Assembly: GCA_008632985.1 (NCBI GenBank)
Contig: QPGO01000014.1
Coordinates: 434,001 to 498,000 of the forward strand
Length of the DNA: 64,000 nucleotides
From: Psammoneis japonica
Taxonomy: Eukaryota
Direction of reading: 5' to 3'
The notes below the pieces were generated by a model. It was given only the letters and a program-made list of their open reading frames with translations. It made no database searches and had not been told where the DNA came from. Shown in pieces: positions 5,027 to 61,094 of the stretch (positions within the stretch are counted from its first letter, which is position 1; the number at the start of each line of letters is the position of its first letter). The position numbers and the translations under genes were made by a program.

Positions 5027-5301
5027 GCTCAACAAAGTTGATGATGGACTGAGAAGGTTAGTGTGGTACTGGCAATGGGTAACACGGTACGCGGTACTGT
5101 AAGGCAAAAAGAAGAGAAGAAGCCACATCCAATGTGAAATGATGAGAAAAAAAATGAAGAATGAGGCGAATGATGAGTCATGCATGCATGAGTCAGATCG
5201 GGATTGGTGTCGTGTGCTGTTCCACTGTGAAGGGGGCGCGCCGCGCGCTCGGGGTGATTTCAGAGTTTTGAGTGAGTCCAGACTGTTCATAAAGCTCGAC
5301 C

Positions 5302-22340: not shown

Positions 22341-23177
22341 ACCGTCTGGATGGAGGTTGAGAGCTTTGAGACTCAAGTGCAGGGGAACAGGAAGTGCGTC
22401 GATGACGAGCACATTTTGCAACTTGACAAGTAGCCACCCCTGCATTGCTCCTGCATGGACTGAGACTTTGAGTCTTTTTGGGAGCGTGCCCACAACAGCT
22501 TCGTCTGTTTCTTTCTTGGTTCCCCAAGAAAGGCATGTGCAAGGCGGCGATGGCTCTGTCATGGAATCCAAGCACACCTGACCTTCAGGAAGAGATGCCA
22601 GGTGACTCCTGTCAATGAAATGATGAACCTCAAAGTCAGCAGCCCCCAAATCCTGAGAAGCAAAGACTTCGTCAGCATCCAACACTTTGACTTTGACAGT
22701 GCACACAAGGCTGGGATGGAATGATGCCTTTGCATTTTGCTTCCATCATGTTCGTTGATTGATGGAAACTTTGGGGTGACGAATGAATCCTTCTCTTAGA
22801 TTGTGAGATGCAATGACAAAGGTCCTCGTCGTCGGTGTCAAATGCTCTCTACAAACATGTACGGCATGACAACACAACAGAGAGAGGGATTATGTCACGA
22901 TCGACATTATGACCCAAGCGACCGAAGCTCGCTATCGAAGACGGACGAGTGCGCTGCGAGGAGCCGATGAGAAACAGTACAACCAGATGTGTACCATACA
23001 ACATTACTGGACATTCGGCTCCCGCGCCGATTTGAATAGGATGGACGCGGGGAAAGAAATATTGCAGCCTTCGACTTTCAAAAGAGAGTTATTATTACTG
23101 TACTAGGGCCTAAAGGGCTTCTGTGATGAGGACAATTGTCGTTGAAAAATGCTGTCCAACGGCCAACGGCAGGTCAT

Positions 23178-25679: not shown

Positions 25680-27910
25680 TTGAGAAAGTTGAAGTTCAAG
25701 GAACCCATCATTCCAGAAGGCTTCGGCAAAACAGTCAGTGAAATCATGACACTGCAGACACCCATGTGGCATGTGTGGCAGCATCTGTTGCACCGGTGGC
25801 AGTGGTGATTGAGAACATTTTCCTGAAGCGTCAGCCACATCAAGACACTGCAGACATCCATGTGGCATGCGGGGCAGCATCTGTTGCACCAGTGGCAGGA
25901 GGAGTGGTGATTGAGAACATTTTCCTGAAGCATCAGCCAAGTCGGGTTTTCTCCCTTGCCATCGCTGACGAAGCAAAGGGGCACGGCACTGTGGGTGGTC
26001 AAGAATGACATTAAAAGCATTTGGTTTGGCAATCAAAATTGTTCAATTCTTGGCAACTGGCAGCCAGTTCCAAGAGGCACAGTGCCAATGTCCACAGCTC
26101 TTCTGGCTTGTTTTGGCAAAGCTGGCCAGCCTGGTCAGATGCACAAAGTGCTTGGTTGGGTCTGAAACAAAAGTGGTGAAAACAACTGAAGTTGATGAAA
26201 GTGGAGCAAGACAAATCTGGGTGATTGGGGGCTGTGGAGAGGAAAGACAAGAAAGAGAAATCACATTTTCTGGCACCTCAATCAGAAACCCCAAAAAAAG
26301 CTGTTGTTGTTCAAAGCCATTCTGGTCATGTGCAGAGAGTTGCTCCACACAGCAGCAGTGCTGACCTGACTTCTTGTTGTTGCTGCCAGTGCCAGGAGTG
26401 TTGCTGACCATCTTGGCAAGCCCAGGAGTTTTCTTGCCTCCTGCCAGTTTTTGCTGTGCTCTGAACCTCATTGCGATTGCAAGCTCTCCCCCAACGGTCA
26501 TTTAATTTGTTTGTTCCATAAAAAAATGAGAGCCAGAAGCACAGGCTGCTCATTTGCACACATCCTCCATGTTCAGCTCAGATCTGCAAGAGTCAAAATT
26601 GAGCCAGAGAGATGGGAGCAGTTGGAAACAACTTTGGTGTAAGATGAGAAATCAAGTCCACCAAGAACACATTTAAAGCTGAGAGCATGAGCCAGTGGAC
26701 AGAGGGTGACAGTCAAAGAACAAGAGTTTTGTGACAAACTCAACATTCTCCATGACTTTCAGAAAGAGAAATGCTGCAATCCTGCTGCAATCCTGCACAG
26801 TGTTTTGGACAGGGTGGCACTTTGGGGTTGTGAGGGATTTTCAACCACAGAGATTGTTGAAGCCTGTGCAAATGTAGAAGCAGCAAAATGAGCAGCAACA
26901 GGTGGCATGGGGGCTGCAGGAGCAGGGCAGGAACAGCTGGAGATGGGGGAGAGAAGAGGAATCGAGGGATGTGAGTGGCAGAGTGATGGGCAATGTTGCA
27001 TCCAAGAGTTTGTGCAGCCCATTGAGAAGGGGAGGTTGAGTGGCAGGAGCTGCCAAAGTGATTCTCATCAAAGTCATCCATGCAAAAAAGGCAATCAGCA
27101 AAAGGAGCTGGTGGGTGCAATGTCAATGTTGACTGTGAGAGAACCCTGCTGGCTTTCAATCCAGCAGAGCAGCACAGAGGCGGCAACCAGAGCAATTGCA
27201 GATGGCACTGGCATGGTCATGCCCAAGGGAGGAAGCAGACAGGTGGTCATGGGTGAGCAACCTGATGATGGCAGCAGCTGCAAGGGTGTCCATGAGCGGC
27301 ATCAAAGAAGGGCTGAGGAGGGCATGCAAGGGGGCAACAGATGCAGTCACAAAGGCAATTGTGTTGGAAGGCTTGAAAGGGGTCAGGGAAGGAAGAGCAG
27401 CAGGCACGGTCATGGGGGCAGATGTGGCAGAAAGGCTCAAAAGGGTCACGGAAGAAAGAGCAGCAGAGGAAGGGGTGGGAAGTGCTGGGACAGCAATCTT
27501 GTGTGAAGACTCCTGGCCGCACAAAGGGCATGGAACAAAGGTGCAGGAAACAGGGAAGGTGGATGAAGCAACCAAAGGAGGATGGTTGAGAATGGAAGGT
27601 GATGATGATGACAGCAGTGGTGAGGGAAATGAGAGCCACAAAAAGAAAGGAGGCCAAGGCAGAGGGTTGAGAGGCCACTTTGGGAGGTGTGCAGCATGGT
27701 GCCACTGCATCCGCAAGGGGACGCTGCCACTGCAGCAGACACCACCAATTGATTGAAGTTCACATGCATTGACAGTGACAGGGTCTGCTGACAATGGAAT
27801 GACCATCTGACACAATGATGCTCCAATGGAAACACTTTTTGTGGAATGGTCCGGATGCTTCCTCTTCTGGCACAACCAACAAATGTTTGATTTCTGGTCA
27901 CTGAGCAGCA
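25680..27910. other. TpA- and CpG-depleted tract B
   Basis: Same dinucleotide signature as tract A; no identifiable product. Confidence 0.8.
25748..25939 (+). repeat. Two tandem copies of a ~96-bp unit
   Basis: gacactgcagaca...gattgagaacattttcctgaagc at 25748 and 25844. The second copy has CG->CA at two sites. Confidence 0.9.
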
Positions 27911-28476
27911 GTGCTAGAAAGGTCATCTGAGGCAATGTCAGTTAAGAAAACAACTCATTTGATTTGGTTGGGTGCAGTCTAGATTGCTGAGAGTGTCATC
28001 ATTTCCCCATGTGACCAGAGCAGCCTGGAAGTGCACTTTGAGCTGTGCCAGGTGTTTCTTTCTCCAATTTCTCCTTCACAGGAATCTTAGCACTTACAAG
28101 GTTCACGAGGCTTCTCACTCTGGAGGGGTATTATCGACAGATGCAACAGCCCCTCTGCTTCTGATCGGGTTGCCAAGAGAAGCATCGTTACTGTCATTGA
28201 GACTGTGCAAAGGCCTTGGCTGAATAATGGCGAAAAGTCGACACCGACAGCATCTCAACCTACAAGCCCGTTTCATAAGGATTCGTCGTCATGCCAAAAG
28301 TCAACCAAAACACGGCAGGTCGCTAAACGTTGGCGAGTCAATCAACAATGAGAAAGATTTAGTCTACTGTACAGATGCTACGCTACATTACTAGTTCAAT
28401 CTCTGTCTTTCGTATTGCTTCGGACGTTTCAGCGGCTTGATTTTTTGACCTTGTCCTTTTCTAAATTATAGACATT

Positions 28477-31106: not shown

Positions 31107-33552
31107 ATGAAATTTATGAGAATAGCACTGGCGGCAGGTGAGTTCTTGTTGTTTTCGTACGATGTGTGTGTTTCTGAGTTGACGAGAAAACGACCGTCGA
31201 CAAAAAGTCATTGTGTGTCTGCAAACGAGAATTGTCAGAATGACAATTGCCAGCTCGACGAAAGAGAACACTGTATCAGACTCAGTGGAACTCGTTCAGA
31301 TCCAGAGCTGGTTGTCTCGAGTCAGTCTTTCTGTTTGATTCGAAATTCAAACTGGTCACTGCTGCATATGACGGTCATTGTTCTCGGTTGAGAGTCTTGA
31401 AAATCCCGTAGGATGCGTTTGGCAGAAAACAACAAGTTCCACGCGACGATTTAAATACCAGAATATCTTCTCATCATTTTCTTTTTTTTTTAACTGCTAT
31501 ACAGTCGCCGCCATGACAATGCCATTTTCCTCCTTGGCTCAAGAAGATGAGGGAGGAATCGGCACGACAATTGGAATTGATCTGGGAACGACGTATTCTT
31601 GCGTTGGTGTCTTCAAGAATGGACGTGTCGAAATCATTGCCAACGATCAAGGTAACCGTATCACTCCTTCGTATGTTGCCTTTATGGAAAACGGTGACCG
31701 ACTCGTTGGAGATGCTGCCAAGAATCAGGCTACAATTAATCCTGAAAACACGGTGTTTGATGTGAAGCGATTGATTGGCCGCGGTTTCTCCGACAAGTCT
31801 GTTCAAGCAGATAAGAAATTGGTGCCTTACAAGATTGTTTCGGATCAAAACAAGCCCGTCGTGGAGGTCACTGTCGGAGGCAAGGTTTCCAAGTTTGCTC
31901 CCGAGGAAATCTCCGCCATGGTGTTGCAGAAAATGAAGCTCACGGCCGAGACCTTTTTGGGGAAGGACATCAAGCACGCGGTTGTTACCGTGCCTGCCTA
32001 TTTCAACGATGCCCAGCGTCAGGCTACCAAGGATGCCGGTACCATTTCGGGTATGAAGGTGGAGCGTATCATCAACGAACCGACCGCGGCTGCCATTGCC
32101 TACGGTATGGACAAGACGGGCGGAGAGTCCAACGTGTTGGTATTTGACCTTGGTGGAGGTACCTTTGATGTGACGTTGCTGACAATTGATAACGGTGTGT
32201 TTGAGGTGTTGGCCACCAACGGAGACACGCATCTCGGTGGAGAGGACTTTGATCAGCGTGTGATGCAGTACTTTATCAAGATGATGAAGAAGAAGAGTGA
32301 TGTTGACATTTCGAACGATAAGCGTGCGTTGCAGAAGCTTCGTAAGGAGGTGGAGCGTGTCAAGCGTGCTCTGTCGTCTCAACAGCAGGCTCGTTTGGAG
32401 ATTGAGGAGTTGGCTGATGGATTTGATTTGTCCGAGACTTTGACTCGTGCTCGTTTCGAGGAGTTGAACACTGATTTGTTCAAGAAGACTCTCGGACCTG
32501 TTGGCCGTGTTTTGGATGATGCTGATGTCTCCAAGAGTGAAGTTGATGAGATTGTTCTTGTCGGAGGATCGACCCGTATTCCCAAGGTTCAGTCTTTGAT
32601 TTCCGAATACTTTGGCGGTAAGGAGCCGTCCAAGGGAATTAACCCCGACGAGGCTGTTGCTTACGGAGCTGCCGTTCAGGGTGGTATCCTTTCCGGCGAT
32701 GGTGGTGACCACACTAGTGAGATTTTGCTTCTTGATGTGACTCCCTTGTCGCAGGGTATTGAAACTGTGGGAGGTGTCATGACCAAGTTGATCAACCGTG
32801 GAACCACAATTCCCACCAAGAAGTCTCGTAAGTGACGATGGATTCGTTCCCTGTTGTTTTGCAATTTCTCTTAATTTTCGGATGCATCTCAAATATGGCT
32901 CGCTCCCCAACTGTTTCTCGCAGAAACCTTCTCGACACACCAGGACAACCAGAGTGCAGTATCGATCCAGGTTTATGAGGGAGAGCGATCCATGACAAAG
33001 GACAACCACTTGTTGGGTAAATTCGAATTGACTGGAATCCCACCTGCTCCTCGCGGTGTCCCACAAATCGAGGTTACGTTTGAAGTGGATGCCAACGGCA
33101 TCCTTCAAGTAGCAGCCGAAGACAAGGGAACCGGAAAGTCCGAAAAGATCACCATTACTGCCGAGAAGGGACGTTTGTCAGAAGAAGAGATTGAGCGCAT
33201 GGTCCAAGAGGCTGAAGAATTTGCCGAAGAGGACAGGAAGGTCAAGGAGCGTATCGATGCTCGCAACGGTCTTGAATCCTACCTTTACAACCTCAAGAAC
33301 ACTCTTGAAGACGACGAGAAGGGTGTTGCTGACTCCATCTCGGCCGAGGACAAGAAGGAGATGCAAGACATGATTGACGAGACTCTTGACTGGATGGACG
33401 AAAACCCTGAAGCCGACAAGGAGGACTATGATGAGAAGCAAAAGGAGGTTGAAAACATTGCCAACCCAATTATGCGTAAGGTTTACGCCGCTGGTGGCGG
33501 AGGAGGGGACGCAGAAGACGATATGGGAGACTTTGGCGATGACGAACTGTAG
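31107..33552 (+). CDS. BiP: ER luminal Hsp70 (BiP), copy 2; exons 31107-31137, 31505-32827, 32924-33552
   Basis: Signal peptide [22 protein letters not shown], Hsp70 motifs, DDEL. Introns 31138-31504 and 32828-32923. Confidence 0.97.
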
Positions 33553-34499: not shown

Positions 34500-36080
34500 C
34501 ACCGCCTTCTCTCTTCAGCCAGCTGCCAGCCACAATGGCCAGCTTGCCACCCTGAACCCTGCCAGAGAATCAACGACCGCACGACGTGGTCAGCAGGCAG
34601 GAGGGGCGGTGGCGGGCACTGGGCGGATTCGCGCGAAGATCCTTCATTTCGCGCGGAGACTTTTGAGTCCAGCTGTTCGACGAGGAAACGTTTGCCGCTT
34701 GTTTGGATCGGTTCAGGAGATGAAAAGCCTGTTGCTGGTGGTGACCCAGTCTAAACGTAAGCTTCTTGGCTGAGTGTGTCTTCTTGAAGTGGGGCAAATG
34801 ATGTGACAATGAAGATGAGGCATTGAGGGCAGCACCAACTGGGGCAAGAAGGCAAGCTTGTTGATGGCAACAAAATGAGGAAGGCATTTTTGCACAAGAG
34901 CTGATGTGCCTGACCTTGACCAGAACTCTGGCTTCATTTAAGGTTGCCACTGACAAGTGCAGCACAAACAATGGCAAGTGCTGGCAGAAAACCAGGCCTG
35001 CTGGCTCCGGACGCACTCCAGCTCCAGGTGGGACCTCGCACTGCTGCGCTGTGACATCAAGAGTTTTTGAGATCACATCACATGTTGCGCGTGCAGATGG
35101 CTGTGTGTGATGTTCTACAAAATTGTTTCATGCTCTCCATTTTGCAAAGCCAAAGGCTTTCCATTTTCAACATTTGTGATGATGAAAATGCGCTGGGTGT
35201 GTTCTCCAATGTCTGAAGAATGTTCCCGGGCAAACTGTTGATGATGTGCTTCAAGTGTGTGGGAGGAGATGCATTTGTAAAATTGCCTCTTTTTCTGTTG
35301 GCGATCATTTGCATTTTCATTGCTTGACAAATTTGCTGCGGAGCTTGCGCGCAGAATTCTATGGGCCCAATGTCACACGGAGTCCCACCCAGGACTGGAA
35401 CCCGTCTCCGACTCTCTCCCACATCAAAGAGAAGACACACACATCATCGTGCATGATGGGGGGCGGGGGGGGGGGGGGGGAAATGCTGCCTTGAGCAGTT
35501 GTGGCTTTCTTGAGCAAGGAGCAGGAGCTGCCAATTGGAAAAGAGCTTCAACAGCTGTTTTGTTCTGTGAGCTGCCACCTTGGATGCTCCTCAGCTGTCT
35601 CTCTCTTGGGCCCTCTCTGTGTGTTTCTGCACAGATTTTCTCTCAAGTCAAAAGGGCGTCTCAAGCCAGTGGGCCGTGGAGGTTGCTCCAGCCCGCGCAT
35701 GACAACAATGGCAAGAAAATGCACTCTGAAAGTGTGGGCACCACACCCCTGCATTTTTTGTTTCTCGTGTCGTGCACAAAAAGCACACCCCAGAATGCGC
35801 TGTGCCACGGAAGAGACCAGGTCACAAATCGAGGGCGCAGGTGTGATGAGGCACCTGGCCCAAACAAGAAGTGTCCTGCAAACCACCACAACCTCAAGTT
35901 CAAACACCCTCTGCCACCCTTCTTCTCCAAGGAGATCAGCCAGCACCTCCGAGCTGAATGGCTCATGAAATTTTGAAAAAATCGACCAGCGCCATTTCTC
36001 ATGGGTGGTTGCATGCGCCAGCGTGCGAAGGGATCGCTGCTGCCGGTCCGTCGATTCTTCCTTTTTTCGTGTTTCTTTCC
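34500..36080. other. TpA-depleted (partly CpG-depleted) tract C, probable TE remnant
   Basis: TA is rare across the tract while CG is retained at the edges. Poly-G run at ~35458-35480. Confidence 0.7.
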
Positions 36081-41417: not shown

Positions 41418-43401
41418 GGTATAATAACAAGGATGCAGTTGTAATACACAACACTCAATGGGTTGTGAAGACACTTTGGCGTAATCTGAATCGTAGTGCT
41501 GGTTGTGTTTCGTGAACTCGGCCGACACGACACAAATGCACGAGACGTTTTCATGGCCGTTTTGAAAAAACCTTGCAAACTTGCAAACCCTTTTTTTCGG
41601 CGGGACAGGTTTAATTCTTTTGAATCAAGAAGAAGTCAGAACGACATGATGTTGAGCTCTTGATGATGACAGGTCCCAAGCACTTGCACTTGCTTGCACC
41701 TCTCGGATCAACTTCTCGAGGCGAACGTGGAGCAAAGGCAGCGCTCACGACGAGTCAAGCAAAATAGTCTTTCCCAGTCTGGAGACCAGAAGTACAAAGA
41801 AGCCATCGCCAAATGACGAGTCTCCTTTTTGGAACACCTACGGAAGACATGTGAGCCGGTAGAAGGATCAGAACTCTCGGCATGCTCCTGCAAGAAGCTG
41901 CGACGAGCAGCAACGACGCCATGGCTGATTCTGATGATTATCGATCGAGCGATTCCTGTTTTTCTTGTCGTCTGTCCAGCGCGCGCCAGCGATCCAATTG
42001 TATCCGCCTGTCTGTCCACGCGTGGAAATTCCGTTGAGATTTTCCCGCCACTTTGGACCAAATTTTTAGAGGCTCAACAACAATTATGTGCCACAAATTA
42101 TGTTACAAGGCCATGTTCTGGTCTTTTGAGTGCAAGTTGTTGAGAAGATGGTAACTCGTCCGGCCTAGACAGCCCATGCTTTTGGTCAGTTGTTTTGTGT
42201 GAGAAAGACCGTTTGGCTGAATGCCCACATCACTGCCAGCTGGGGCCCTGCTTGACAGTGCAGAGTCAATGCACGCAGTGTTTGTGTCAGAATCTCCATC
42301 AGGTGCCATTCAACATCTTGGACTAGAACTTGGTCAGGATCCCAGCGGAAGCGATTGTTTTGTGCAACAGAATGGTCGTCGGCGCTGAACTCACTCGGAG
42401 CTGAGTGTGGCATCAGGCTCCCCGATTCAATCAGCAGCAACGGCTTGATCCTCACAAAAAATGGACAAGACCATCTGGTTGCCATTGACCTTGAAGACTG
42501 GTCTGATGTTGAGGAGACTGGACAACTTCTTTTTGGTGTGTCTGCATCAATGTGTTGCACATCTGGCATGTTCGGTCGCACACAAGCACCTGGCCAGTGA
42601 GCCCACGCCACATCCCTCTCGTCCATGATTGCTGGATTGGTTCCTCATCTGCTTCTGAGTCTAGAGTCATGGAGCAATGGGTGAGGCAATCTTTTTGACT
42701 GTGACACTTGCGGATCCTGTGGCCTTGTTTGGCCTGATCTAACCACATTTCTGCTTGCACAGGACCGCCATCTAACTTTCAAGCAAACTTTCTCAACACC
42801 AGACCCCGTTGGCATTCCACCGCACAGTCGCACCCTTGAGACGTCTCCCAACATGTGAGAAATCAGAACAAAGTGAATCCAATGTTTTGGGTTATGTTCA
42901 TGATGCGAGTGCGGTGTTTTCATTGGATCGACGCCTCTCCCACGTCTCTCGCCATGTGTTTTTGTCAACCTCAATTTCAACTCTCCCATGTGGCTGTTAA
43001 AATTGCCCTGACCGCAGGCTTGACACAGCACATTTGCATTTTCTTGTGGATTGCTGCATCCATTCCCAACTGAGGAGTGTCATGCAGTGACAGGAACGTT
43101 TCCGTGAGGGGCAATGGCATTCCATGTTTGCGGTGATTTTCCATCAGGAAAAGCATCTGCCACTTGTAACATTCTTCCTCTTCATCATCTTCCTCGAATG
43201 ACACTGCAGGCACTTGCAAGGAGTTTTGGTGTGATGTCTGGGGTGCTGCATCTTCCGCCAGATTGCCGCAGTCATTGTCCATCTCGTCAATCTCGTCGAC
43301 ACTCTCCAGCCGTGATGATGACCTTTCTTCATTGGTGCCTTCACGCCCAACTTTGCCTTCCTCATCCTCAGAGCTCTCCCAACCACAAAGATTCATGTCT
43401 G

Positions 43402-44448
43402 TCAACCCAATGGAATGGAGATGCAACCAACATAAACTGACAAGTGCTTCTTCCGCCGCATTGACAGATCATGAAATCCAGCACTCTCTCTTAGAGACAT
43501 CATCACAGACAGTGCACACAGGACAAAACAATCGGTCAAAACAGAGAACAATGCCGGTGGGCGCCTCGCCATTGACTCTGCCACAACTTGTGTCAAGGGA
43601 GACTTGTTCTTCTTCTTGGCAAGACATTGCCATTGCTTCATCTTGACATTCACCTTGCACTCCAGGAACATTCTCTGCAAGTGCATCCCAGGTGCAAGCC
43701 CACACTCATTGCATTTCACAGGGCATCCCTTGATCACAATGGCACCCAACTTAATTTTCAAACTTGTTTTCTTTGCCCCCTTGTTGAAACAGGGGATGCC
43801 CTGTTTGTCAGCATTCAAACGCAAATGTTCTGCTGAGACAGCAATGTTGCATGACAGAGCATCCATCCCATTGACATTGATGGCATCCGCTTGTGAAGCA
43901 TGAAATTCTTGGTTCATTTTGGTCATCAAGTCCCAGAGAAATGACACAAAAACCATTTGTGTCAGTGGCTCGTGAGGGCTGCAGCATCCAAACAAGAGGA
44001 ACCTTGCATGTTGCAGGTTGACCAAGGCTTCGGGAAGGAACGTCGTGAGGTTTGCTTTGTGGTCATGGAGGCCAAACGAGTCAATGAGATTCTCCACATC
44101 CGTCAGTTTGTTTGTTTGTTTTCCTCCCATCTCAAACCTCTTGAACTTCTGAAAGGACAGCTCTGATTCATCCTCAAACATGCCATGATGAATCTTGTCA
44201 GCATTGAGACTGCCACTGACAAGGTTTGCACTGCAATCGCTGTCATCACTGACAGCTCTTTCACTTTGGCTGGGAGTCTTTGTCATTTTCACAGGATGGA
44301 AGGCACCACAGAAACAAATGAGATCCAAAGCGCGTGGATCTTGAAGGTTTGTTGGGTCTTCCATGTGCTCTTGAAGATCTGACTTGATGTCCTTGCAGCA
44401 ATTTTCTGGTGTCAATGCCAGGCAGTCAAGCAAAAAATCAATTGTCAC
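43402..44448 (-). pseudogene. Decayed ORF with possible PD-(D/E)XK restriction-endonuclease-like C-terminus
   Basis: FLECK...LTQVVAESMA...SVLTD pattern; essentially no Tyr in the body of the ORF. Confidence 0.35.
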
Positions 44449-46184
44449 ATCCGGATTTTCACAAATGCGATCCCTTTGCGTTTGATCTGTTGCATTCCAA
44501 AGTTTTTTGTGTCAAAATCACTCAAAGTAAAAGTGTCATCTCAGACCACACCATCACCCAATGCATGGTTCTCAAACAACCCTCGATGATCATCCAACAA
44601 TTTTTCCCATTGACCGTCTTTCTCTGGATCATGGTCAAGATGATCTGTGATGTCCAAGATGTGTTGGAGGATCATGGTTTACTCTTGATGAACTGGGGGG
44701 CGGCTCCAGCCAGCTGCTGGCTGAAAAACATCTGCTCGTCAGTGCGTTTGGGGGTTTTGCCATCGCAATTTTTACGTGCGGTGTGCAAAAGAGGGCAAGT
44801 CTGTCCAGTGTTCACCGAAAGAACCCCCCTGATGCACAGATTGACAGACTCTTTCAGTGCAAATTCTGCACAAGATTCTTCAGCCAGCAGCTGGCTGGAG
44901 ACTTCCCCCAGAATGGCAGAAGTTGCTCAACATGTCAGCAGCATGAGTGCACAATGCTGCACATGAAAATGGCAACAAAAATGCTTTTATGCACAAAAAA
45001 CAAGTGAAGACAGTCTTGAGTCTGCCTGTCAGTGTGTCTGGGGGTCCTAAACATCAGAGGGAGAAATGCAAGAGCAAAACAAGATGATGATTGTTCCTTC
45101 TCTCTGCATTCCTCCAGAACAACTCTTTTGTCATTTTCAAGCCAAGGATGCATTTGGGGCCTTTCACAAGCACGAGATGGCCAAATGGTTGTTGTCAAGC
45201 CGCATCACAAGCATGGGTGCCAAAAAAAGCACGGCAACGCTTCTCAAGGCTGAGTGTGGTGCAGGGCGCATGCCCAATGTGGAAGGCATGTTTCAAGATG
45301 TGGAGTGGGGTCAGGAAACCATGAACTGACAAAGGGAACTTTGCAGGATCAAGATTGACTGAGTGCAATTGACATGGAAGTGCAAGTCTTGACAACGGGA
45401 CAGTGTGAGCACTTGTTTGTTGAAAGAGATGAAAGCTGTTGTCAAATTGTCTTGTCACTCATTGCAATCCCTTTTTCTCCCTTGCAACAGTTGGCTGGTT
45501 TATTCACAGCCCACAACAGCTTGGCTCAAGGATTTGCAAGACACTTTAATGAGTGCTGCAAGAAACCTGTCAGGGCCGTCACATGATGTGGCAGTGCACG
45601 CTCAGCAATGTTGTCCTCAAGGCCAATCTCAACAACAAGAGGCACCATTTGGTCATGAGTCCTCTGCAAGCAGAAAAGCACAAGTGGACTCTCCCAAAGG
45701 TTCAAAAAGCCATTGGAGTTGAGGACTGTGGTGATGTGGAGCATTTGCTTTAGTTGCTGTGCACCGGTGAGGACGGCACATGTGTCTTTCACAAACATGA
45801 CCATCAGGAACCAGGCACCAACCCGGCCAACAAAAAGGTTTGTCAAGCTGTCTTTGATCAAGACCACAATGAAAGCTTTGAACACTCCCTCTGGCAAATC
45901 AAAATTAACAGCATTGTCTTCAATGAGACCAAACAAGAGCATGAAAGGGTGGTGCAGGCCATGTCTCATGATCACTTGAAAGCATGCAAAATCCTCTTGC
46001 ACCGTGAGCTCATGGAGCCACAGGAAAGTTCGAAAATTGGTGTCCCTGCAGAAATTGGTGCTGACTCATGTGCATGCTTTGCCATGTTAAAAGGGTTCTT
46101 TTTGAGCAAAACACTTCTCACAATCGACCATCTGCTCCGGCATGGCTGATGCCAATGAGCAAGAGTTTTGGCCACAGTTGAACA

Positions 46185-47800
46185 ATGGGCTTGAGCAGTG
46201 CCAGTGCAGTGTCATGGAAGATGGTGAAGATGCCACTTGATTTGGCCATTCTCATTGTTCAAGAGATTGCAAAGAAGAAGCACAAGCTGAAGCAACAAGA
46301 GTTAAGAGATTGTGGTGGCAGAAGCAACAACAATGGCATGGCGCCAATTGATGTGCCTTGACAGCAACTGATGCTTGCTGTGGATGCAAATCCACTGGCT
46401 TGCAAACATGATGGTGACTGCTCAAGCTTGCATCCTGACAATGCTGTTTTTCACATTGTGAGAATGTTGTCAGAGAATCTTCGCAATTTGGATGTTGTTG
46501 CTGATCATCCAACAAAGCATCACCCATCCAAGCAAGCTTCTTGTGAGCATCAAGCCAATGCCAACAAGGCTGATGTTCAACTCATTGTGGCAAGATCTAA
46601 TCTTCAGAGTCTTTTGGCTGCTGGAGATGGTGGTGGCCCGGATGAGTGTGTGAAACAAGTCAACAAAGCACAGAAACGAATGCAGAGTCTTGAGAAACCA
46701 CTGAAAAGTGGGTTGGATCCAGAGTTTGCTGAGAAGCTTGGTTGCTCAATCAAGGAGTGTGACCCACAAGGAAAGGGTCAGATGTTGTTTTCTGTTGCTC
46801 CAAAACAAGCTGATCCCTGTCTTGCCAAAAAAGTTGCAGATGGTGATGTCGATGCTGTGATTTTTCTGGAGACTCTCTGACTTTTTGATGCACATTGGCC
46901 CCAACTGATGGGACTCATGCTGAAAGAAAGACATTTCCATTGCAAAAACAAAAGAGCCCATCAAATCATGTTGATTGTGCAAGGGCCAAGAGTTGATCAC
47001 AACTTGCATTGAACAAATCTTACAACCTGTTCTTGAGCATTCACCATTTGAGAATGACAAAAGCCAGAAACAAGACAGGAATGTTCCGAAGTGTCCAATC
47101 TTCAGTGGAGTCCAAGACGATGGTTTGAGCTCCATTGGCCATTCTGGTGGGCTGTGATGTGTGTGCCAAAGGAGCACTTGGGAGTGGTCTGCATGCAGTG
47201 AGTGAACTGATTCAGTTGCATTCAAAGGAAAAGACAAGAGCAAGAACTCCACACAATGCTCTTGCAACTGCCATTTGTGAGATGTCTGGTGCAGCTGTTT
47301 TAGAAAAAAAAGCTGTCCTGACATGGGCAAAGTCTGTTCTGTTTGAGAAGATGCATGGCAGTGGACACATTCACGGTCAGCCGCCAATGGTTTTGGGACA
47401 TTGCCTCAAAGATTTTGTGGGAGAAAGTGCAGAAATTGAAGATGGTCCCACATTTGCAGCGTGCAAGGGGTTCAAGAGAACCAATCATGAGTTTCTTGCA
47501 GCAGAGGGAGTCCAAGAGTGTGCCATCTGTTCTTGCAAATTTTGCCACATTGTTGAAAAAGACAAGTTGCCTGGAGGTGAAGACAGAACGCTCTGCCTTG
47601 AATGCTTCTTTGAGGATGCTGCATTGGGTGTGGACAGCCAGGATGAGAAAGATGTGCAAGAACATCTTGCAGGCAAGGGTGTCCAAGCACTGCAATGAAC
47701 AGCATTGCATGTTGAGGTTTTGTCTCTGTGTGAGGATGCTGAAGCCGGTGCCTTCAACCAATTCGATGAAGACATCACAGATGTCAAGCTCCCGCTGCTC
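46185..47800 (+). pseudogene. Decayed XPG/FEN1/Exo1-family nuclease followed by a Cys-rich finger, probably TE-borne
   Basis: MGL start, LAVDAN, DVVADHP.K.HPSK, APKQADPCLA...VDAVI, then GDSDF after a frameshift, AILVGCD (H3TH), CAICSCKFCH...LCLEC. Confidence 0.7.
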
Positions 47801-47859
47801 CCAACATCTTCACTCATCCTTCACAGGAGCCCAACTTTCATCGAATTGGTCATGGGACA

Positions 47860-48350
47860 CAGTTGGCTCCAATGATGAGATCAACATTCATGGTCTCAGA
47901 GGCACCAGCACTGTCACTGTCTTGGTGATCCTGGCAATGGATTGTGTGCTGACTCTCTGTTGTTCTGTGATCACTTGGAACATCAATCAAAGTGATGAGG
48001 CCATCCATGATCTCAGAACCTTGTTTGAATGCACAACCCCAAAGGCATTCATCCAACATTTTGTGGTGGCAAAAACCAAGGCACTTGTCAGGTTGGAGGG
48101 TTTCTCCTGTTGTCACCTCAACTCCTGTTGGAGAGGTGACCATCCCTCTTGCACCTTGCACAATCAGTTGCACTCTTGGGGATGTCAAACTCATCAACCA
48201 TTGCCAGCAGGATTGCCCCACCACAAGGCTTTGCATTTTCAAGTTTCATTTCAAACATCAAAGTCATGACAACTCCTTTCTCCTTTGCAAAAGTTTCTGC
48301 TGCACTTGACCCCACTGGGTTGACACCAAAAATTGCAATCTTGAACTTAG
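47860..48350 (-). pseudogene. chlP: Decayed 5' fragment of geranylgeranyl reductase
   Basis: KIAIFG..PVGSSAAETFA...FEMKLENAKPCGGAI..AMVDEFDIP, then in the next frame SPTGVEV..GETL...MNVDLIIGA. These match the ChlP N-terminal half. Confidence 0.85.
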
Positions 48351-48769
48351 CTTTGCGGCACTTGCACAGAGAAACAGACCAAAAATGGACTGACAGAGCA
48401 GAGACATTGTCAAGAACTTTTCCTTTTTTTGAAAATGATGGGAACCCAAGAGAGAGGGAGCCTGTCATTTGTCCTTTTTTAGTTGGGAAAAGCAGGGATT
48501 TGCTTCGTGCAATTGACGCAGTCATGCAAAGGGAATTGGGGTTTGCGTGTGCAAATCTTTTAGCTTCTTTTGCACAATTTTTGAACAACACCTGGCGCCC
48601 CATCACAAATTTTTTCATCCTTGGTTTTGGCTGTCTTGGGGGCTTGATGCAAATGGTGCAGTGCCAGTCCCATGGTTGCAGCTGCTGATGCCAAGTGTGT
48701 CAATGCATTTGAGCCATCATCCTGAAGGGACCCAGTGCTCACACAGCAGTCTTCCCAACTGGGATGTTT

Positions 48770-49060
48770 GTGGTGTGGTGAGCAGACCTTGCTGTTGTTG
48801 TGCTGGTCCTCACATTGACAAATCCACGTGCTTCAGAATGCAGCTTTTGCTGCTTGTCTGAAAGTCAAGCTGCAATCATTTGCAGGGTTGCTCTGGCTTT
48901 CTTGCCAATCAATCCCATCACAAGACACCACAAAAGGTTGTTTGAAATGATGATGTTCTTGCTCAAGGCACAGCTTGAGACACTTGCACCATTTTTTCTC
49001 TTTGTCATCAGGTGGATCTTGCTCTGGCATCTGGGAAAGGCAGGATTGCACATGAACTTC
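48770..49060 (-). mobile_element. Non-LTR retrotransposon remnant (CRE-like restriction-like endonuclease C-terminus)
   Basis: EKKWCKCLKLCLEQEHHHF..PFVVSCDG and LIGKKARATLQMIAA*LSDKQQKLHSEARGFVN, similar to EKK.KYL..CLEQRRHFTPFVVS.DGL.G.EA...KPYS...GYVN. Confidence 0.7.
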
Positions 49061-50199
49061 AAGCATTTTTTTGTGTTTGGTTGCAGCTCTTGCTGGAGCT
49101 CTTGCTCCCGCACAAGACAGCATTTGCTTTTCTTGCTCTCGACTGCTGGCCACTGACAGGTGCAGCTTGCCGTGTGCCTGGGAGGCAAACAAATCTTTGT
49201 TGCTGCCATGCCTCTGCAGCATCATTGTTGTTTTGTAGATGCAGCCCTGCCATTGTCTTCTCCATTCAATGCCTCTTGCAACTGGTGGGGTTTGTGGTTC
49301 TTGGTGTTTGGGTGTGGTGGCATTGTTGCTGTCACAATGCTGTCTGTGGGTTGCAGCATCAATGTGTTGGAGATGGTTCTGTGGGTTTTGGTGCTGGTGC
49401 TTCAGTTGTCAATGTTGTCATTGGCGCGCATCACAGGTGCGGGTGTTGCAATTGGTGTCAGCATCACAGTGGTTGCAGCAGCACAAAACTGGCATGAGAG
49501 ACACCTTGTTGGGCACAGGGCTGTGGCAGCAGCTGTGTTGGCAAGGTCCAAACTGGCTCAGCCAAGAGGTGCAATGGCTCTGCTTTGCCACTGTTCTGGC
49601 TGCAGTTTGCTGTGGCACTTGTGCGTCAACTGAGGCAGCCAGCATCCAGCTCAATTTTTGTCATCTGCCCTTTGGCACAGGCTTCATGAGCATTTTTTGA
49701 GCAATGTGGTGCACAAGAACAAAGTTCTTCTCTCCAATGGGAAAACACAATTGTTGTTTGGAGGAACACTTGCATTGAAAGCTCCTTGGAGAGAGGCAAG
49801 CAATGGGACAAGAGTGCACCAAGGCTCAACAGTGTGCTGTCTGCATGGCCAGCAATTGTCATGGGCAGCCGTGGCCAGGACTGGTGCATTGCACCCAGCA
49901 GCGCTGGCTGACAATGATGGTGGTGAATTGAGAAAACCAAATCTCCAGCTGAACAACCCAGAAAGTAATTTGTAACCTCGCCTGCTGGGAATGATTGGAG
50001 GAGGATAAAAGTGCTGTTGCAGGTGTGCTGGGGCCAACTCTGAGTTGTCTTCTTGCTCAGAGCATCATTGGTGCACAGCTGAGAGCTGAGCACAACAGAC
50101 AGAGGCACCATTTTGGGGAACTCCAGTCCTTGCTGCCAATTGGCAGCATGGAATGGAAGAGGCGTGCACATTGCTCAGATGGAATCCAGGATCACAAAA

Positions 50200-50560
50200 T
50201 GCCACCTTTGTCACCTGGCTGTCCTGCTGTTCTTGCTTGGTCAGATCATGACAGAGCAGCTCTGTGGTGCAATCTGGAATGGACTGGGAGGGTCAAACAT
50301 GCCTGGATTGGACAAGTTCTTGCACATGAGAGTTGAAACCCCAAGATTGTGGGCTTCTTTGTTGCAAGTCAGCGGCACAGCTGGTTCTCATTCTCTGTGG
50401 GTCTGAGACATTTGTCATTGCAGCATGCACAATGCTTCAGACCTTGCAGAGCTTTCACACTTGCTGGGCAGCCCAGAGCCTTGCTGTTTGTGCAACACTG
50501 CAAAATGCAGATGGGGTTGAAACATTTGAGTGAGGAGTGAGAACACCTGGACATGGCTGT
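50200..50560 (+). mobile_element. Non-LTR retrotransposon (RTE-like) post-RT region remnant
   Basis: DHDRAALWCNL...AWIGQVL...PR and KSAAQLVLILCGSETFVI...MLQTLQSFH, similar to YKAVVQSVLLYGSETWV...ML..LEGFH. Confidence 0.6.
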
Positions 50561-52481
50561 GATGCCAAAAGAGGCTGATGGTCTGTGCCCTTGTTTCCTC
50601 ACAGAGACTCTCTCCTGAAGCCACATGGACAGTGTGCCAGACACTGCCTTGTGCAGGTGCTGCATCTCAGCACAGCTCCAAGGCATGCAGTTTGAATCCA
50701 AGAAAATTTCCAATGATGTCACACAATGATCTGCAGCAGATGCCAAACTGTTTCCATCAAGTTTCTTCCAAATTTCTCCTGATGTCAAATGCAAGGCCAC
50801 AGGAGGGGGGGGGGTGCTGAGAAGCTCTGAAAATGGCGTCTTGGTGTGGGTTGTGGTTGGCATCAGCACAGAAGTTTGCACACATTTTTGGGGCTTGTTG
50901 CTGGGTGCTCGCAGCTGACTTGCTCCTGCTGCAGCCAGTTGAGGCTGCTGCGGCTCTGCTCCTGCAGAGGCAGAGCTGGTTGTTGCAGCACCAGGAGAGC
51001 CCAGGCCCTCTGATGGCATTGTTGGTGTTGGCATTTGACATTTGCCCAAAATCCAACTGGAGATCTTCAACAAACACTCAACATGCGAGCAACAACAGCA
51101 GCAGAAGGCACCTGACATTGAACTGTCAACATTGAAGACTGTGTCAAAAATGGCTTGCTGTCACTGTTCTCTAAAAAATGCTGAGAGAAGTGAGACAAAG
51201 GCAGACAACAGCCATCGTTGCTTCACACCCAAATTCCAGCACTTTTGACAGATCTTAGAATCTCTCTCTGCGTGCACTGGTGCTGCACCCACCAACAATT
51301 TTGATTTTTGCATGAAGTGCAAAAACATGAAAATCTGCCATGGGCTGTTTTGCATGGAAGACAGCCAGATGAAGTGGTGTGCACAAAAGATGTTCCTGCC
51401 AAAGCTGTGCTGAACATTTGGTGACTGCTGCTGCCCTCCCAAAATATTTTAAGGAAGCAGTCACACACACATGTGATGTGCTCTTTGCATGCAAAAGACA
51501 CATTCTCCAAATGCTGGCATGCCGAGACAGTCTGCTTGTTGAGCTGTGCAGGATCCCTTCCTTTCTGCACATTTTTGTCAAATTGGCATTGCCACAAATT
51601 CCCTGCCTTGGGCAACAATGTGCTGGATGTGACCTGCCAAGTGGCAGCCTCAAAAGCTGTCTTCCTGGCCAGGCATTCCATCATGAAGGCTTGTGGGCAT
51701 TGCTCATGACAGCACAAGGTTGGAGCTGATGATGACTGGGTGGGCTGCTGAACTCACCTGGATGAATGAGCCATCAGCACAACAGCACATTTCTCAGCAG
51801 CTCTCATGAAACAATGGTGACACCTGCTTTGTGACGCTTCAAATGAAACTCTGGTGCTGCCATGGCTTGAGAGCCTTGTCAGTGCTGCTGCAACAACTCC
51901 AAAGCCAACAAGGCACAGAAGTGATGCCACCACCTGCTGGAACATTGACAAAATCGGGTGCCAAGTTGCACCTCCATGTCTGGCACCAAAGTGCAGCAGA
52001 TTCAACTGGAGCGGCAGCTGCAGAAGGCAGAAGCCCCGTTCCTGGTCAGACATTCCATGACAAAAGCGTGCGAGTGTCGCCATGCCATGAAAATGTCAAA
52101 GCTTGCATGTTGCAGCAGTGAACCCTCACCTGAAACATCAAGCCAATTGACCATCACTCGAAACTGATCATGGCATCAGGCTCCCCGATTCAATCAGTGG
52201 CAACAGCTTGATCCTAACAAAAAATGGACAAGATCATGTGGCTGCCATTGACCTTGAAGACTGGTCCCACGTTGAGGAGACTAGACAAGTTTATTCTTTA
52301 TTCGGAATGTTTACATCAATTTTGTATATCTGGAGCACAAAGACAAAGCAGAAAGGTATGATGTTGGGTTCTCGATGATGGCAGGGTCCAAGCATCTCCA
52401 CTTGCATGCACCTCGGATCAACTTCTCGAGGGATGCACGTAGAGCAATTATAAAGCATCGCTCACGCACGTTGCTTCAAAG

Positions 52482-53173
52482 TCAAGCAAAAGTCTTTCCC
52501 AGTCTTGCAACTAGAAGCACTACAAATAAGCCACTGTCAAATAGCGAGTGATCTTTTGGGAGACGAACTCGTACAGCAAAACTGAGAGCCGGTAGAAGAA
52601 ACAAATCTCTCGGTATGCTCCTGCAAGCTGGGCACAACAACGCCATGGCTGCAGCACGGCTTTGAGGCTTTACGAGCAGTTCCATGGGATGTTACATTTG
52701 CTCAAGTTCCTGTTTGTAAAGCCTTGCCTTTTCAATTTGCTCACCCGCCATGTCCCCAAGCATAGCTATTGCATTATCGCGTGAAAGTGACTCCGATTCA
52801 TTGATTGAAAATTCCCCACGACTCCCAGCGAGCTTGCCGATCCAGTATAGTGTTTGGGGATTTCCTGAATCATGCAGATAGGCTTGCCGAAAGGCGGTTT
52901 CTTTATCAACTTCGCAAGCATCACCGTCAATGTTTATTCGATTTCATAGGGGACGCCATAGTTTAAGTGGATGCCAAGTTTGCAGTATGCAGCGCCGACG
53001 TTTGCGTTTTTACCGCCATCCGATTGGGTTTCGATGATTCGTGAAAGCAGTTCTATGGCATCATAATCAACGCCGTCGTGCATTAGAAATGTGTCATTGG
53101 AATTTTCCAGCTCATTATAAAGGTCCCAGAGTTTTTCGACGCTTGGTTCAGCTGGTGTGTTTGCCATACCCAT
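52482..53173 (-). pseudogene. Broken gene remnant whose 3' part is paralogous to 41646-41927
   Basis: Short ORFs with stops and frameshifts. DNA at 52358-52651 is similar to 41646-41927. Confidence 0.4.
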
Positions 53174-58504: not shown

Positions 58505-60264
58505 CACTCTCCATCGTGAGTCTATGCGTCGACCGTTCTTCGCGCGCGCGCTCTCACGCACCCGAAGAGGTCTCCTCATAGACTCTCGCGGAAGTAAGAC
58601 GGACGATGTACCAGGGTCGTATGTAGGCCGTTTGTTACGGTGCCGTTTTTCCGGACATGCCGCAAGCGCATCGTCTCATTGCTGTTATCGGCATGAACGA
58701 CTCCCAAGGCTATCTAGCACTGTAGAATGAATCTTTCACAGTGTTGGGACGTTTCGAGCACACCATGACAAAGCCCCACAGTTGCATGACTGCCACATGG
58801 CTCCTCACTCCATCATCCACAATCGGGTGTGTTGACCCTTTTCTCTCGGCTCGATCGTGCTAGCCACACATCGAACCACGACCTGTGAACTATCACGCCA
58901 GGTCATTGAGCTGGCAGTCGTCCACCAGCAGTTGCCACAGGAGGCTGAAAAGAGAAGGGAGGATGCAAGAAGTGAGAACATCCGTGACACAGGATTCAAG
59001 AGAGGCAACAAAGTTGGAAACATCAACGCAAAAAATGGAAATGTTCTCACCGGCAATTAACGCCAAGGAAGAGACACGACAGCACCACTGAGCACCGAGA
59101 GGTGCGCCAAAGAATGCCACTGAATCCCCACCAAGCCCATCAATCAGCCTGTGTTTTCGATCCATGCTGCATCACAAAGCAGGAGATCTTGCCAGAGGCG
59201 AAAACAAAAACTGCAATTGTTGAGTCACAGAAGCAAGTTGTGAGCAAAATCACAACACCAACTTGCCAATTGACCTTTGTGCACATTCTTTTGTGTCTCT
59301 GTGCATGTGCTTGTTGCTGCAACGGCATTTGTCTCACGCCATTGCCAGAGGCATTCACACCATCGTGAACTGATGAAATCCTGCGTGAAGTGCAAGCCCC
59401 ATTGAGTGAGTTTGAATGCCAACAATTAACAACATTGTCACATGAGCTTACCTCCTTGACTCAGTGTCACCAAATGAGCACAGCCAACACACTCAAATCC
59501 ACCCAAGCGGTGAGAAATCGACACAACCGTGCAAAAATCTCCAAAAATGTCACAAAACAGCGACGCCCAACCAAAAATGAGACCCCAGACTGTCTTTGCC
59601 TCGAATCTCAGAACTGTGGTCAAACCACACCTCATGCAGACACCAGTGAACAACACCAAGGCATTGCATGGACTGAGAACCTGCGTGACAACGAGGGAGA
59701 GCCCAGTCCGTGAGCGAGCACATTTCTGGCAAAAAATGCAAAGCCATTTGTTGCGAATGACAGAAACAATGGTTGTGCCCCAAGAAAGACAATGCCATTG
59801 CAAGGCAATGATGAAAATGCGCGTGAGTTTCCATGTCATAACTTGCAGGGCGCAACGGAGCGGAGCATGCGACGACAATCAACAACACATGTCAGCACCC
59901 ACCGAAAAAGTGACGATTTTGCACTTGGTCAGTCTCGGGGATAAATCAATCAAATGTTTGCCAATTTTCTCCATTCTGGCACCATGGTGCGCTTCAACAG
60001 CGAGTGTCTGAACAACCACTGAGCGGTGCAAGGCATGGCGGTCGATGCGCCGATGAAATCAATCATCGTCGGAACGGCACATTTTCTGGTGTGTTTTGTG
60101 CAGAAAGCTCTGCAGAGCGTTTCGCCAAATCCAGGGAGGCATGGCAACAAATTTTGAGCCACTGTCCGTCTTGCTTCCGCGAGAGTCTATGAGGAGACCT
60201 TTTCGGGTGCGTGCGAGCAGCGCCCGCGAAGAACGGTCGACGCATGGACTCATGATGGAGAGTG
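58505..60264. mobile_element. Non-autonomous TIR DNA transposon, Mutator-like (1760 bp)
   Basis: ~105-bp TIRs (CACTCTCCATC...) and a 9-bp TSD ATTCTGTCC at 58496-58504 and 60265-60273. No intact transposase ORF. Confidence 0.9.
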
Positions 60265-60354
60265 ATTCTGTCCATTCATCGCCCTCTTTTGCGGACATTG
60301 AATGTGGTTTGTTGTGCTTCAAAGTCGCCAAATAATTGAATGAAAATGCTGATA

Positions 60355-60863
60355 AGGACTGAGGCGAGCGCGCGGCTACACGAAGTTGTCAGTCCCGCCC
60401 ACTCGTGACTCAGTACATTTCTACGGTGAAAATTGCGTGGGAATCCGAAGATGACAAAAACGGTCAGATAACTTCCGCTAACTACAATATGAACTGCACC
60501 TAATGTACATTCCATGTTCTTTTATACATGAATTAACACCTTTAAGCGTTAGATGCAGTTACTTTGATGAATTTCGCCAAAATAACGCTAAGCACTGCAT
60601 TGCGTGCAAATCCACGGCACTCCGTACGATTCGTGTTTTGTTTCGGATAACTTCCAATTCGTCAAAGTAACTGCATGTAACGCCTAAAATAGTTAATTCA
60701 AGTATTAACGAACAAAGAATGTACATTAGGTGCAGTTCATATTGTAGTTAGCGGAAGTTATCTGACCGTTTTTGTCATCTTCGGATTCCTACGCAAAAAA
60801 TTTACTGAGTCACGAGTGGGCGGGACTGACAACTTCGTGTAGCCGCGCGCTCGCCTCAGTCCT
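60355..60863. mobile_element. Foldback MITE (509 bp) with ~210-bp inverted arms, flanked by TA (Tc1/mariner-type TSD)
   Basis: AGGACTGAGGCGAGCGCGCGGCTACACG... at 60355 with its reverse complement ending at 60863. Arms ~60355-60573 and ~60656-60863. Confidence 0.88.
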
Positions 60864-61094
60864 TAGATGCGATGATCTTATGAATTTCTGTATCGGAATC
60901 AATATTGAATGTATCATATCTACGCTCGCGCGAGACACCAAGAAAAGAGGGCTTATAAAAAAATTGTAATTGTGACCCTGACCTTGTAAAACGTTTCGAG
61001 AGACGATGTCTCTCAATAGTCATTGTTATTCAACCTGCCATCCACAAAATTGCCCGCCGGCATTCTCATTTCAATCGAAGCACATACAAGGACG

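Follow-up and report, generated by a model that had tools for sequence, protein, structure and literature searches.

Depleted tracts in the window

The window, i.e. the whole stretch of 64,000 bases of eukaryotic DNA that was analysed, has a flat overall G+C content of ~0.48, but its dinucleotide content is not flat. Five tracts with sharp edges, which together comprise 19,000 of the 64,000 bases, are depleted in TA and CG:

18001-22500: depleted tract 1
26001-28000: depleted tract 2
34501-36000: depleted tract 3, with 6 TA (TA o/e 0.07, CG o/e 0.49)
42101-52100: depleted tract 4, the largest with 10 kb (the main tract), holding the chlP and cullin relics
59001-60000: depleted tract 5 (TA o/e 0.08, CG o/e 0.61)

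In the five tracts pooled, the o/e values were 0.06 for TA, 0.23 for CG, 1.75 for TG and 1.79 for CA, compared to 0.51 for TA and 0.96 for CG in the window outside of them. The G+C content was the same inside and outside (0.483 vs 0.478). The main tract contains 38 TA (o/e 0.06) and 131 CG (0.23), with TG at 1.75, CA at 1.82 and a G+C content of 0.48. On its left side, TA becomes thinner from ~41500, and CG remains at normal density to ~42050 and then declines gradually to ~45000; the sub-segment 42101-45000 has o/e values of 0.09 (TA) and 0.42 (CG). The right edge lies between ~52000 and ~52215 according to site lists and 500-base bins. From the values of the tract at 34501-36000 it seems that TA is lost before CG, or at a higher pace.

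The main tract contains no intact gene, and all confident Pfam gene matches of the window lie outside the tracts with the exception of the cullin relic. Neither TIRs nor LTRs framing the main tract were found, and most tract DNA has no second copy within the window. As TA is gone, two of the three stop codons are lost, which leads to long false ORFs. Between 42000 and 52000 only TGA stops remain, and long overlapping stop-free frames on both strands carry a risk of miscalling; one example is a frame of 315 aa (47322-48266, plus strand) antisense to the chlP relic.

A chlP relic in the main tract

The minus strand from 48354 to 47862 is a dead, partial and frameshifted copy of a diatom-type nuclear chlP (geranylgeranyl reductase). 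It consists of the following parts:

48163-48354, minus strand: chlP piece A, the start of the mature protein (TIGR02028 positions 2-60; P0001 residues 23-88, 57% identity)
48135-48162, minus strand: junction between the pieces, 28 nt vs 9 reference codons, with a net +1 frameshift
47862-48134, minus strand: chlP piece B, with the Tyr to Cys/His and Arg to His/Trp/Cys positions (TIGR02028 positions 66-156; P0001 residues 98-187)

The initial annotation had placed a decayed chlP fragment at 47860-48350, and these coordinates are essentially right. Both peptides that it quoted, KCLGFCHHKMLDECLWGCA and HTIHCQDH, are carried by the stop-to-stop ORF 47850-48245 (minus strand), and the NCBIfam profile TIGR02028 (ChlP) matches both frames, at positions 2-60 with an E-value of 3.8e-15 (55.6 bits) and, in the second minus-strand frame, at positions 66-156 of 398 with an E-value of 2e-11 (43.3 bits). 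While the family match is significant, the scores of 55.6 and 43.3 bits are far under the full-length cutoff of 505.3 bits, and the relic is not a functional, full-length and intact member. Pfam gave no match to it. With P0001 as query, tblastn found homology at 48363-48163 and 48134-47862; nothing else in the window could credibly be assigned to chlP, as the match ranked next had an E-value of 0.34.

The relic spans the first ~165 codons of mature ChlP, and the C-terminal two thirds (~60% of the protein) are absent. In piece A, the FAD-binding glycine motif is degraded and one codon is extra in comparison to the references. The homology of piece B ends at the conserved Gly-Ala-Asp motif, with the frame stop at 47850-47852. 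Invariant residues of the catalytic fold are replaced, and 25 out of 68 invariant columns are changed. The junction (48135-48162) was excluded from all counts due to its ambiguous alignment.

The best 40 of 120 retrieved ChlP relatives, ranked by their score against the relic, served as reference set. Six sources were recognisable among these best 40 of 120, namely, Cylindrotheca, Helicotheca, Thalassiosira, Cyclotella and the partial names Aulac- and Minuto-; all are diatoms, and the non-diatoms with a known name all ranked below these 40. A homologue search gave no match for piece B and two chlorarachniophyte-like ChlPs for piece A. Chlorarachniophyte-like ChlPs were rejected as closest kin with 34% identity in piece B vs ~50% for diatoms.

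A search for the parental chlP at 80% likeness in three DNA runs of a single sample, the one data set containing the locus, matched only the contig of the locus itself. This own-locus contig of the DNA run (word depth 65.5) carries G at position 47871 within the relic, and the window carries A. It is the sole difference over 801 bases, with CG in the run contig vs CA in the window (plus strand), and may be a segregating CpG to CpA change or an assembly difference.

Changes at Tyr and Arg columns

The ChlP consensus that the initial annotation had given agrees with 16 aligned diatom ChlPs. It had been claimed that all Tyr codons became CAY or TGY and that Arg codons became CAN or TGN. This holds for the quoted peptides, in which the five Tyr columns read Cys, Cys, His, Cys and His (TGC, TGC, CAC, TGC, CAC) and the four Arg columns His, His, Trp and Cys (CAC, CAC, TGG, TGT). 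Over the whole fragment, the rule is less strict. The seven Tyr columns are Phe, Cys, Cys, Gln, His, Cys and His, so that none retains Tyr and five are His or Cys, and the five invariant Arg columns are Met, His, His, Trp and Cys. The exceptions beyond the quoted peptides are an invariant Tyr replaced by Phe (TTC, 48345), a Tyr by Gln (CAA, 48023) and an invariant Arg by Met (ATG, 48249).

The best 40 diatom-type ChlPs have Tyr or Arg at all nine invariant columns, and the relic lost nine out of nine, compared to 16 out of 59 other invariant columns (p 4e-5). His and Cys for Tyr as well as His, Cys, Trp and Gln for Arg are what plain transitions at the first two codon positions produce, and it is therefore the loss rates that argue for targeting.

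Altogether, 152 codons were aligned with the 40 references; 102 agreed and 50 mismatched. The mismatches were classed by single-base reversions that bring back a reference residue:

Restored only by a TA-type reversion: 6
Restored only by a CG-type reversion: 12
Restored by a TA/CG-type reversion or by another one (ambiguous): 8
Restored only by a change of another kind: 18
Not restored by fewer than two changes: 6

The numbers of productive reversions per type were:

TA-restoring: 13 of 72
CG-restoring: 15 of 51
Other transitions: 12 of 177
Transversions: 28 of 738

Reversions of the TA and CG type were productive in 28 out of 123 cases (Fisher p 1e-4 vs other transitions and 1.2e-10 vs all other changes). 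For 26 of the 50 mismatches (52%), one such reversion is sufficient for rescue, while column shuffling rescued 9.8% on average and 17.6% at most, with none of 2000 shuffles matching the observed value. Both strands are affected in an interleaved manner, with three TA to CA, two TA to TG, eight CG to CA and four CG to TG changes on the coding strand. These counts support the direction TA/CG to CA/TG in the chlP copy.

The reporter is noisy, as 24 of the 50 replacements cannot be explained by one simple change at TA or CG. These include Tyr to Phe and Arg to Met at invariant columns, and therefore the copy is old and has also undergone ordinary decay. The TA targeting inside the fragment depends on only 6-7 sites.

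Comparison with chlP DNA of relatives

Eighty diatom-type chlP loci from metagenomes were used for a comparison on nucleotide level. Of these, 57 with the first 170 codons uninterrupted were codon-aligned, and 23 were dropped due to interrupted or incomplete first 170 codons. The best identity of the 57 DNAs to the relic was 63%. This is too distant for a parental stand-in, and they were only used for the definition of conserved sites and for counts; the ancestral codons come from these relatives rather than from a chlP of the same genome. A dinucleotide site was regarded as conserved if it was present in at least 60% of the 57 DNAs. The relic retained such sites as follows:

Conserved TA sites: kept 0 of 6; became TG (3), CA (2) and TT (1)
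Conserved CG sites: kept 0 of 7; became TG (3), CA (2), AT (1) and AG (1)
Other conserved dinucleotide sites: kept 89 of 153 (58%); became various dinucleotides

The retention of TA and CG sites taken together differs from that of the other sites with a Fisher p of 2.5e-5. In the homologous ~456 nt, the 57 DNAs contain on average 16.7 TA (minimum 7), 28.1 CG (minimum 7) and 67.9 TG+CA (maximum 88), while the relic contains 1 TA, no CG and 104 TG+CA. Its TG+CA excess (~36) is of the same order as its TA+CG deficit (~44). The retention of 58% at other conserved sites likewise shows an old relic with ordinary decay.

The direction TA to CA/TG, which had been proposed from the conservation of the protein, is thus borne out by the loss of all nine invariant Tyr/Arg residues and of all six conserved TA sites. 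A copy of a host photosynthesis gene is hit as well, as had been stated; the relic lies inside a depleted tract.

Neutral decay combined with CpG methylation alone, with TA low through a genome-wide avoidance, would be another explanation. CpG loss by itself requires nothing unusual, half of the chlP replacements are unrelated to TA/CG, and TA is under-represented outside the tracts already (o/e 0.51). Moreover, silent DNA that is methylated should lose CpG, and methylation of diatom TEs is described in PMC9998398. However, TA falls by another factor of eight in the sharp-edged tracts (from 0.51 to 0.06), accompanied by TG and CA values of ~1.8. Five of the six lost TA sites became TG or CA in the relic, which kept most of the other conserved sites, and some tracts are without TA and still retain half of their CG. 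Decay of this kind as sole cause is regarded as very unlikely.

A second host-gene relic

The nearest recognisable neighbour of the chlP relic is another host-gene relic, 1.8 kb away on the opposite strand of the same tract:

45120-46053, plus strand: cullin-4-like host-gene relic in three frames (Pfam Cullin, PDB Cullin-4A, tblastn)

It was mapped by tblastn with 10 representative cullins. The Pfam Cullin match has an E-value of 3.8e-12 (46.2 bits vs a cutoff of 33.2) and the PDB Cullin-4A match an E-value of 1.3e-9. Among its 14 conserved Arg columns, 11 are His, Cys, Trp or Gln, two keep CGN and one is Lys; three of the four conserved Tyr columns are now His or Cys. Reversions of the TA/CG type were productive in 36 of 187 cases vs 21 of 238 for other transitions (p 0.0024). 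The cullin relic is an independent replicate of the chlP pattern. It retains 4 TA and 13 CG in 934 nt. The two CGN Arg codons and 13 CG indicate that CG erasure is incomplete even 2 kb from the chlP relic. These residual sites fit a gradual increase of CG loss between 42 kb and 46 kb, in a stretch from which TA has already disappeared.

The two relics also bear on an origin at RNA level, by which they would be retrocopies of double-stranded transcripts with A-to-I editing. This is extremely unlikely. In its favour, the ~500 nt of chlP homology are free of introns, and ADAR usually favours U before the edited A according to a preprint (10.64898/2026.01.13.699255). The depletion, however, is continuous over 10 kb and includes both relics, which lie on opposite strands, as well as the intervening DNA; within one relic both strands are changed, and CG is lost too. 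Depletion stopping at the relic ends was not seen, nor were poly(A) or target-site duplications on the relics. The same signature arises in place in genomic DNA in Bigelowiella natans, as reported in that preprint.

Transposons and control sequences

The initial annotation had described the chlP copy as lying among TEs. This is not borne out for the main tract. Pfam found TE domains in none of the 140 ORFs with a length of 70 aa or more that the depleted tracts contain, and no transposon domain turned up in tracts when 108 ORFs of the whole window (130 aa or longer) were searched. NCBIfam gave no credible match on the longer 90 of the 140 tract ORFs, nor did an Atlas search with the longest tract ORF yield any match. 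As the mutation itself hides homology, the absence of TE domains is weak negative evidence. Elsewhere in the window, one element was found:

58505-60264: TIR transposon (1,760 bp); its terminal inverted repeats are 100 bp long and 93% identical, and the target-site duplication has 9 bp, ATTCTGTCC

The 9-bp duplication and the long TIRs suggest a Mutator-like element. A search of the window for additional copies of the 100-bp TIR gave none. Its interior has o/e values of 0.08 for TA and 0.61 for CG, and three differences between its arms are TA or CG in the left vs CA in the right arm. With TA gone from the interior and most CG kept, it indicates that TEs are also affected and that TA is lost first. 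A palindrome of ~513 bp (60353-60865), which is self-complementary to 81% over 534 and unmutated, adjoins the depleted tract 59001-60000; its region is rich in TA, with 39 TA in 60501-61000.

A ~500 bp repeat flanks the main tract. Its right copy (52154-52651) lies just outside the tract, and the left pieces (41627-41927 and 42391-42566) lie at the left edge in swapped order with 73% and 82% identity. The left copies are poorer in TA (11 to 4 and 7 to 0). The repeat was rejected as a clean mutation reporter due to the identity of only 73-82%, with most differences being of other kinds.

An ORF at 3780-5057 (minus strand) has Fpg/Nei-type DNA glycosylase domains (H2TH, E 6.7e-21) and a HeH/LEM domain; its product would be an enzyme of base-excision repair that also carries a motif for tethering to chromatin or the lamina.

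Two Hsp70 genes in the window served as controls:

7498-9506, minus strand: Hsp70 gene copy 1 (50 TA, 118 CG)
31543-33551, plus strand: Hsp70 gene copy 2 (51 TA, 114 CG)

They form an inverted pair 22 kb apart with 96.9% identity over 2009 bp. Their TA and CG contents are normal, and their 62 differences show an ordinary spectrum. The Pfam 'NAD-GH' matches opposite the Hsp70 strands are presumably antisense artefacts of Hsp70. Since this pair is untouched, sequence duplication as such is not the trigger.

This bears on a RIP-like defence triggered by homology, in which the chlP copy would have been mutated as duplicate of a host gene. The identified targets, chlP and cullin fragments, are in fact extra copies of host genes. 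The linked inverted Hsp70 duplicate has nevertheless remained unmutated, most tract DNA is single in the window, and if this is a photosynthetic alga, its functional chlP must have been spared. The chemistry is reversed as well, as fungal RIP makes TpA from CpA according to the RIPCAL paper (PMC2621366). Such a defence is highly improbable here.

Proposed mechanism

TA and CG were changed in place to TG and CA throughout the tracts on both strands, with intact genes spared, and the relics of two conserved host proteins fix the direction of change. The explanation that we consider likely as a whole comprises a dead chlP copy, transitions of TA and CG in place, and decay of methylated CpG together with a TpA-specific process acting on silent chromatin. 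Most of the doubt that is left has to do with the enzyme and with how targets are chosen, and not with the direction.

According to this explanation, the partial chlP copy would have arisen first, and tract-wide transitions would then have acted on the DNA in place. TpA would be removed by A:T to G:C changes, yielding TpG or CpA depending on the strand affected, and CpG by G:C to A:T changes with the same products. Such opposite changes leave the G+C content flat, while Tyr turns into His or Cys and CGN Arg into His, Cys or Trp.

Deamination of 5-methylcytosine at CpG is the usual fate of silenced methylated DNA, and a methylation-driven process of this kind may account for the CG half. Its feature, CG to TG/CA, is present with 12 CG-only codon changes in chlP and a CG o/e of 0.23 in the tracts. 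The second process would be TpA-specific and of the type that arises de novo in B. natans. Probably adenine is deaminated by an enzyme, or TpA suffers a lesion of equivalent effect, and this process seems to run further or faster than the CG process. Its target would be silent chromatin, and not repeats or foreign DNA as such. Host-derived DNA is also a target, which makes 'silent chromatin' a more likely recognition rule than 'foreign' or 'repeated'. The chlP and cullin relics, together with the untouched Hsp70 pair, indicate that targets need be neither foreign nor repeated, and this narrows the rule to position or chromatin state.

A passive lesion at TpA would require no dedicated enzyme if it stayed unrepaired in untranscribed compact chromatin and transcription-coupled repair protected the genes. 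A UV photoproduct is an example of a possible TpA-specific lesion. In its favour, all long gene-free stretches of the window are affected and all recognisable genes are spared, the main tract fades in gradually on its left side, and both strands are hit. A deaminase accounts better, though, for changes that are nearly confined to transitions and to a single dinucleotide, and the mutations in B. natans appeared as bursts, which affected 11 of 15 laboratory lines and only two of many inserts; this looks regulated (10.64898/2026.01.13.699255). We consider a passive lesion improbable.

For the preferred explanation with its TpA-specific process on silent chromatin, a wider version can be formulated: diatoms may possess a chromatin-directed editing of TpA to TpG/CpA in all silent DNA, operating beside CpG methylation and shared with Bigelowiella as an old SAR mechanism. 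This is conceivable but rather doubtful at present. If it were true, host-gene relics such as the chlP copy would make the targeting rule 'silent', not 'foreign' or 'repeated'. The process would have a role in genome defence or in marking heterochromatin, and its targets would originate from transposons, gene relics and spacers alike.

As a rule, mutations replace G:C by A:T more often than the reverse. The near-complete regional removal of one A:T dinucleotide is rare and was found in print once, in a 2026 preprint on a rhizarian alga. The chlP relic proves the direction independently for a diatom-like genome, with a conserved protein as anchor. In practical terms, depleted tracts mislead gene finders through long false ORFs and conceal the homology of transposons and pseudogenes from profile searches; Pfam missed the chlP relic entirely.

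Comparison with known systems

The relic is homologous to functional ChlP over positions 2-156 of TIGR02028, with plastid-targeted ChlPs of diatoms being the closest. It shares with CpG decay the change of CG to TG/CA at Arg codons and across codon boundaries, which is seen in both relics. CpG decay explains the CG half only, however, as TpA is lost more completely and earlier in the tracts. TEs of diatoms are reported to be cytosine-methylated (PMC9998398). A description of the TA-loss signature in diatoms was not found in the literature covered, most subscription journals being outside this coverage.

RIP, as known from Neurospora and other ascomycetes, consists in C to T changes with duplicated sequence as trigger, and all copies are affected. 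It resembles the present case in local, dinucleotide-specific transitions that destroy reading frames of repeated or non-genic DNA and leave nearby genes intact. It differs in that RIP raises TA and lowers G+C by CpA to TpA changes, while TA is destroyed here at an unaltered G+C content (0.483 vs 0.478), and in its requirement of duplication, as a 97%-identical 2-kb Hsp70 duplicate was spared. The creation of TpA from CpA by fungal RIP is stated in the RIPCAL paper (PMC2621366).

The closest system is that of B. natans. In mutation-accumulation lines of this alga, two silent viral inserts acquired 231 mutations, 230 of them A to G or T to C; all of these 230 were located at TpA and they occurred in only 11 of 15 lines (Mettrop et al., bioRxiv 10.64898/2026.01.13.699255). 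The authors proposed an adenine deaminase, and the targets are silent integrated DNA of giant viruses and virophages. CpG is mentioned zero times and diatoms are not mentioned in the main text of this preprint.

Both cases have in common the change of TpA to TpG/CpA, i.e. A:T to G:C on either strand, the direction of which was established here from five of six conserved TA sites. Both are confined to discrete silent regions and leave clustered windows of low TA and high CA+TG as a long-term signature. They differ in several respects. De novo events were observed in B. natans, while a fossil signature is present here. B. natans is a rhizarian, and the chlP relic is closest to genes of diatoms, which are stramenopiles. 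With an o/e of 0.06, TA loss is near saturation in the tracts, compared to a Rho of 0.45 in the NCLDV insert of the preprint. CpG is erased too (none of seven sites kept) and 24 of the 50 replacements are of other kinds, so that the changes are not exclusive to TpA; the non-TpA changes may be due to separate, slower processes on an old relic. Finally, the identified targets in the main tract are host-gene relics (chlP and cullin) and not of foreign origin; besides these, a TIR transposon was affected in another part of the window. The match to Bigelowiella lies in the chemistry and the regional restriction, and what is new are the lineage, the near-saturated loss of TA, the loss of CpG and the host genes as targets.
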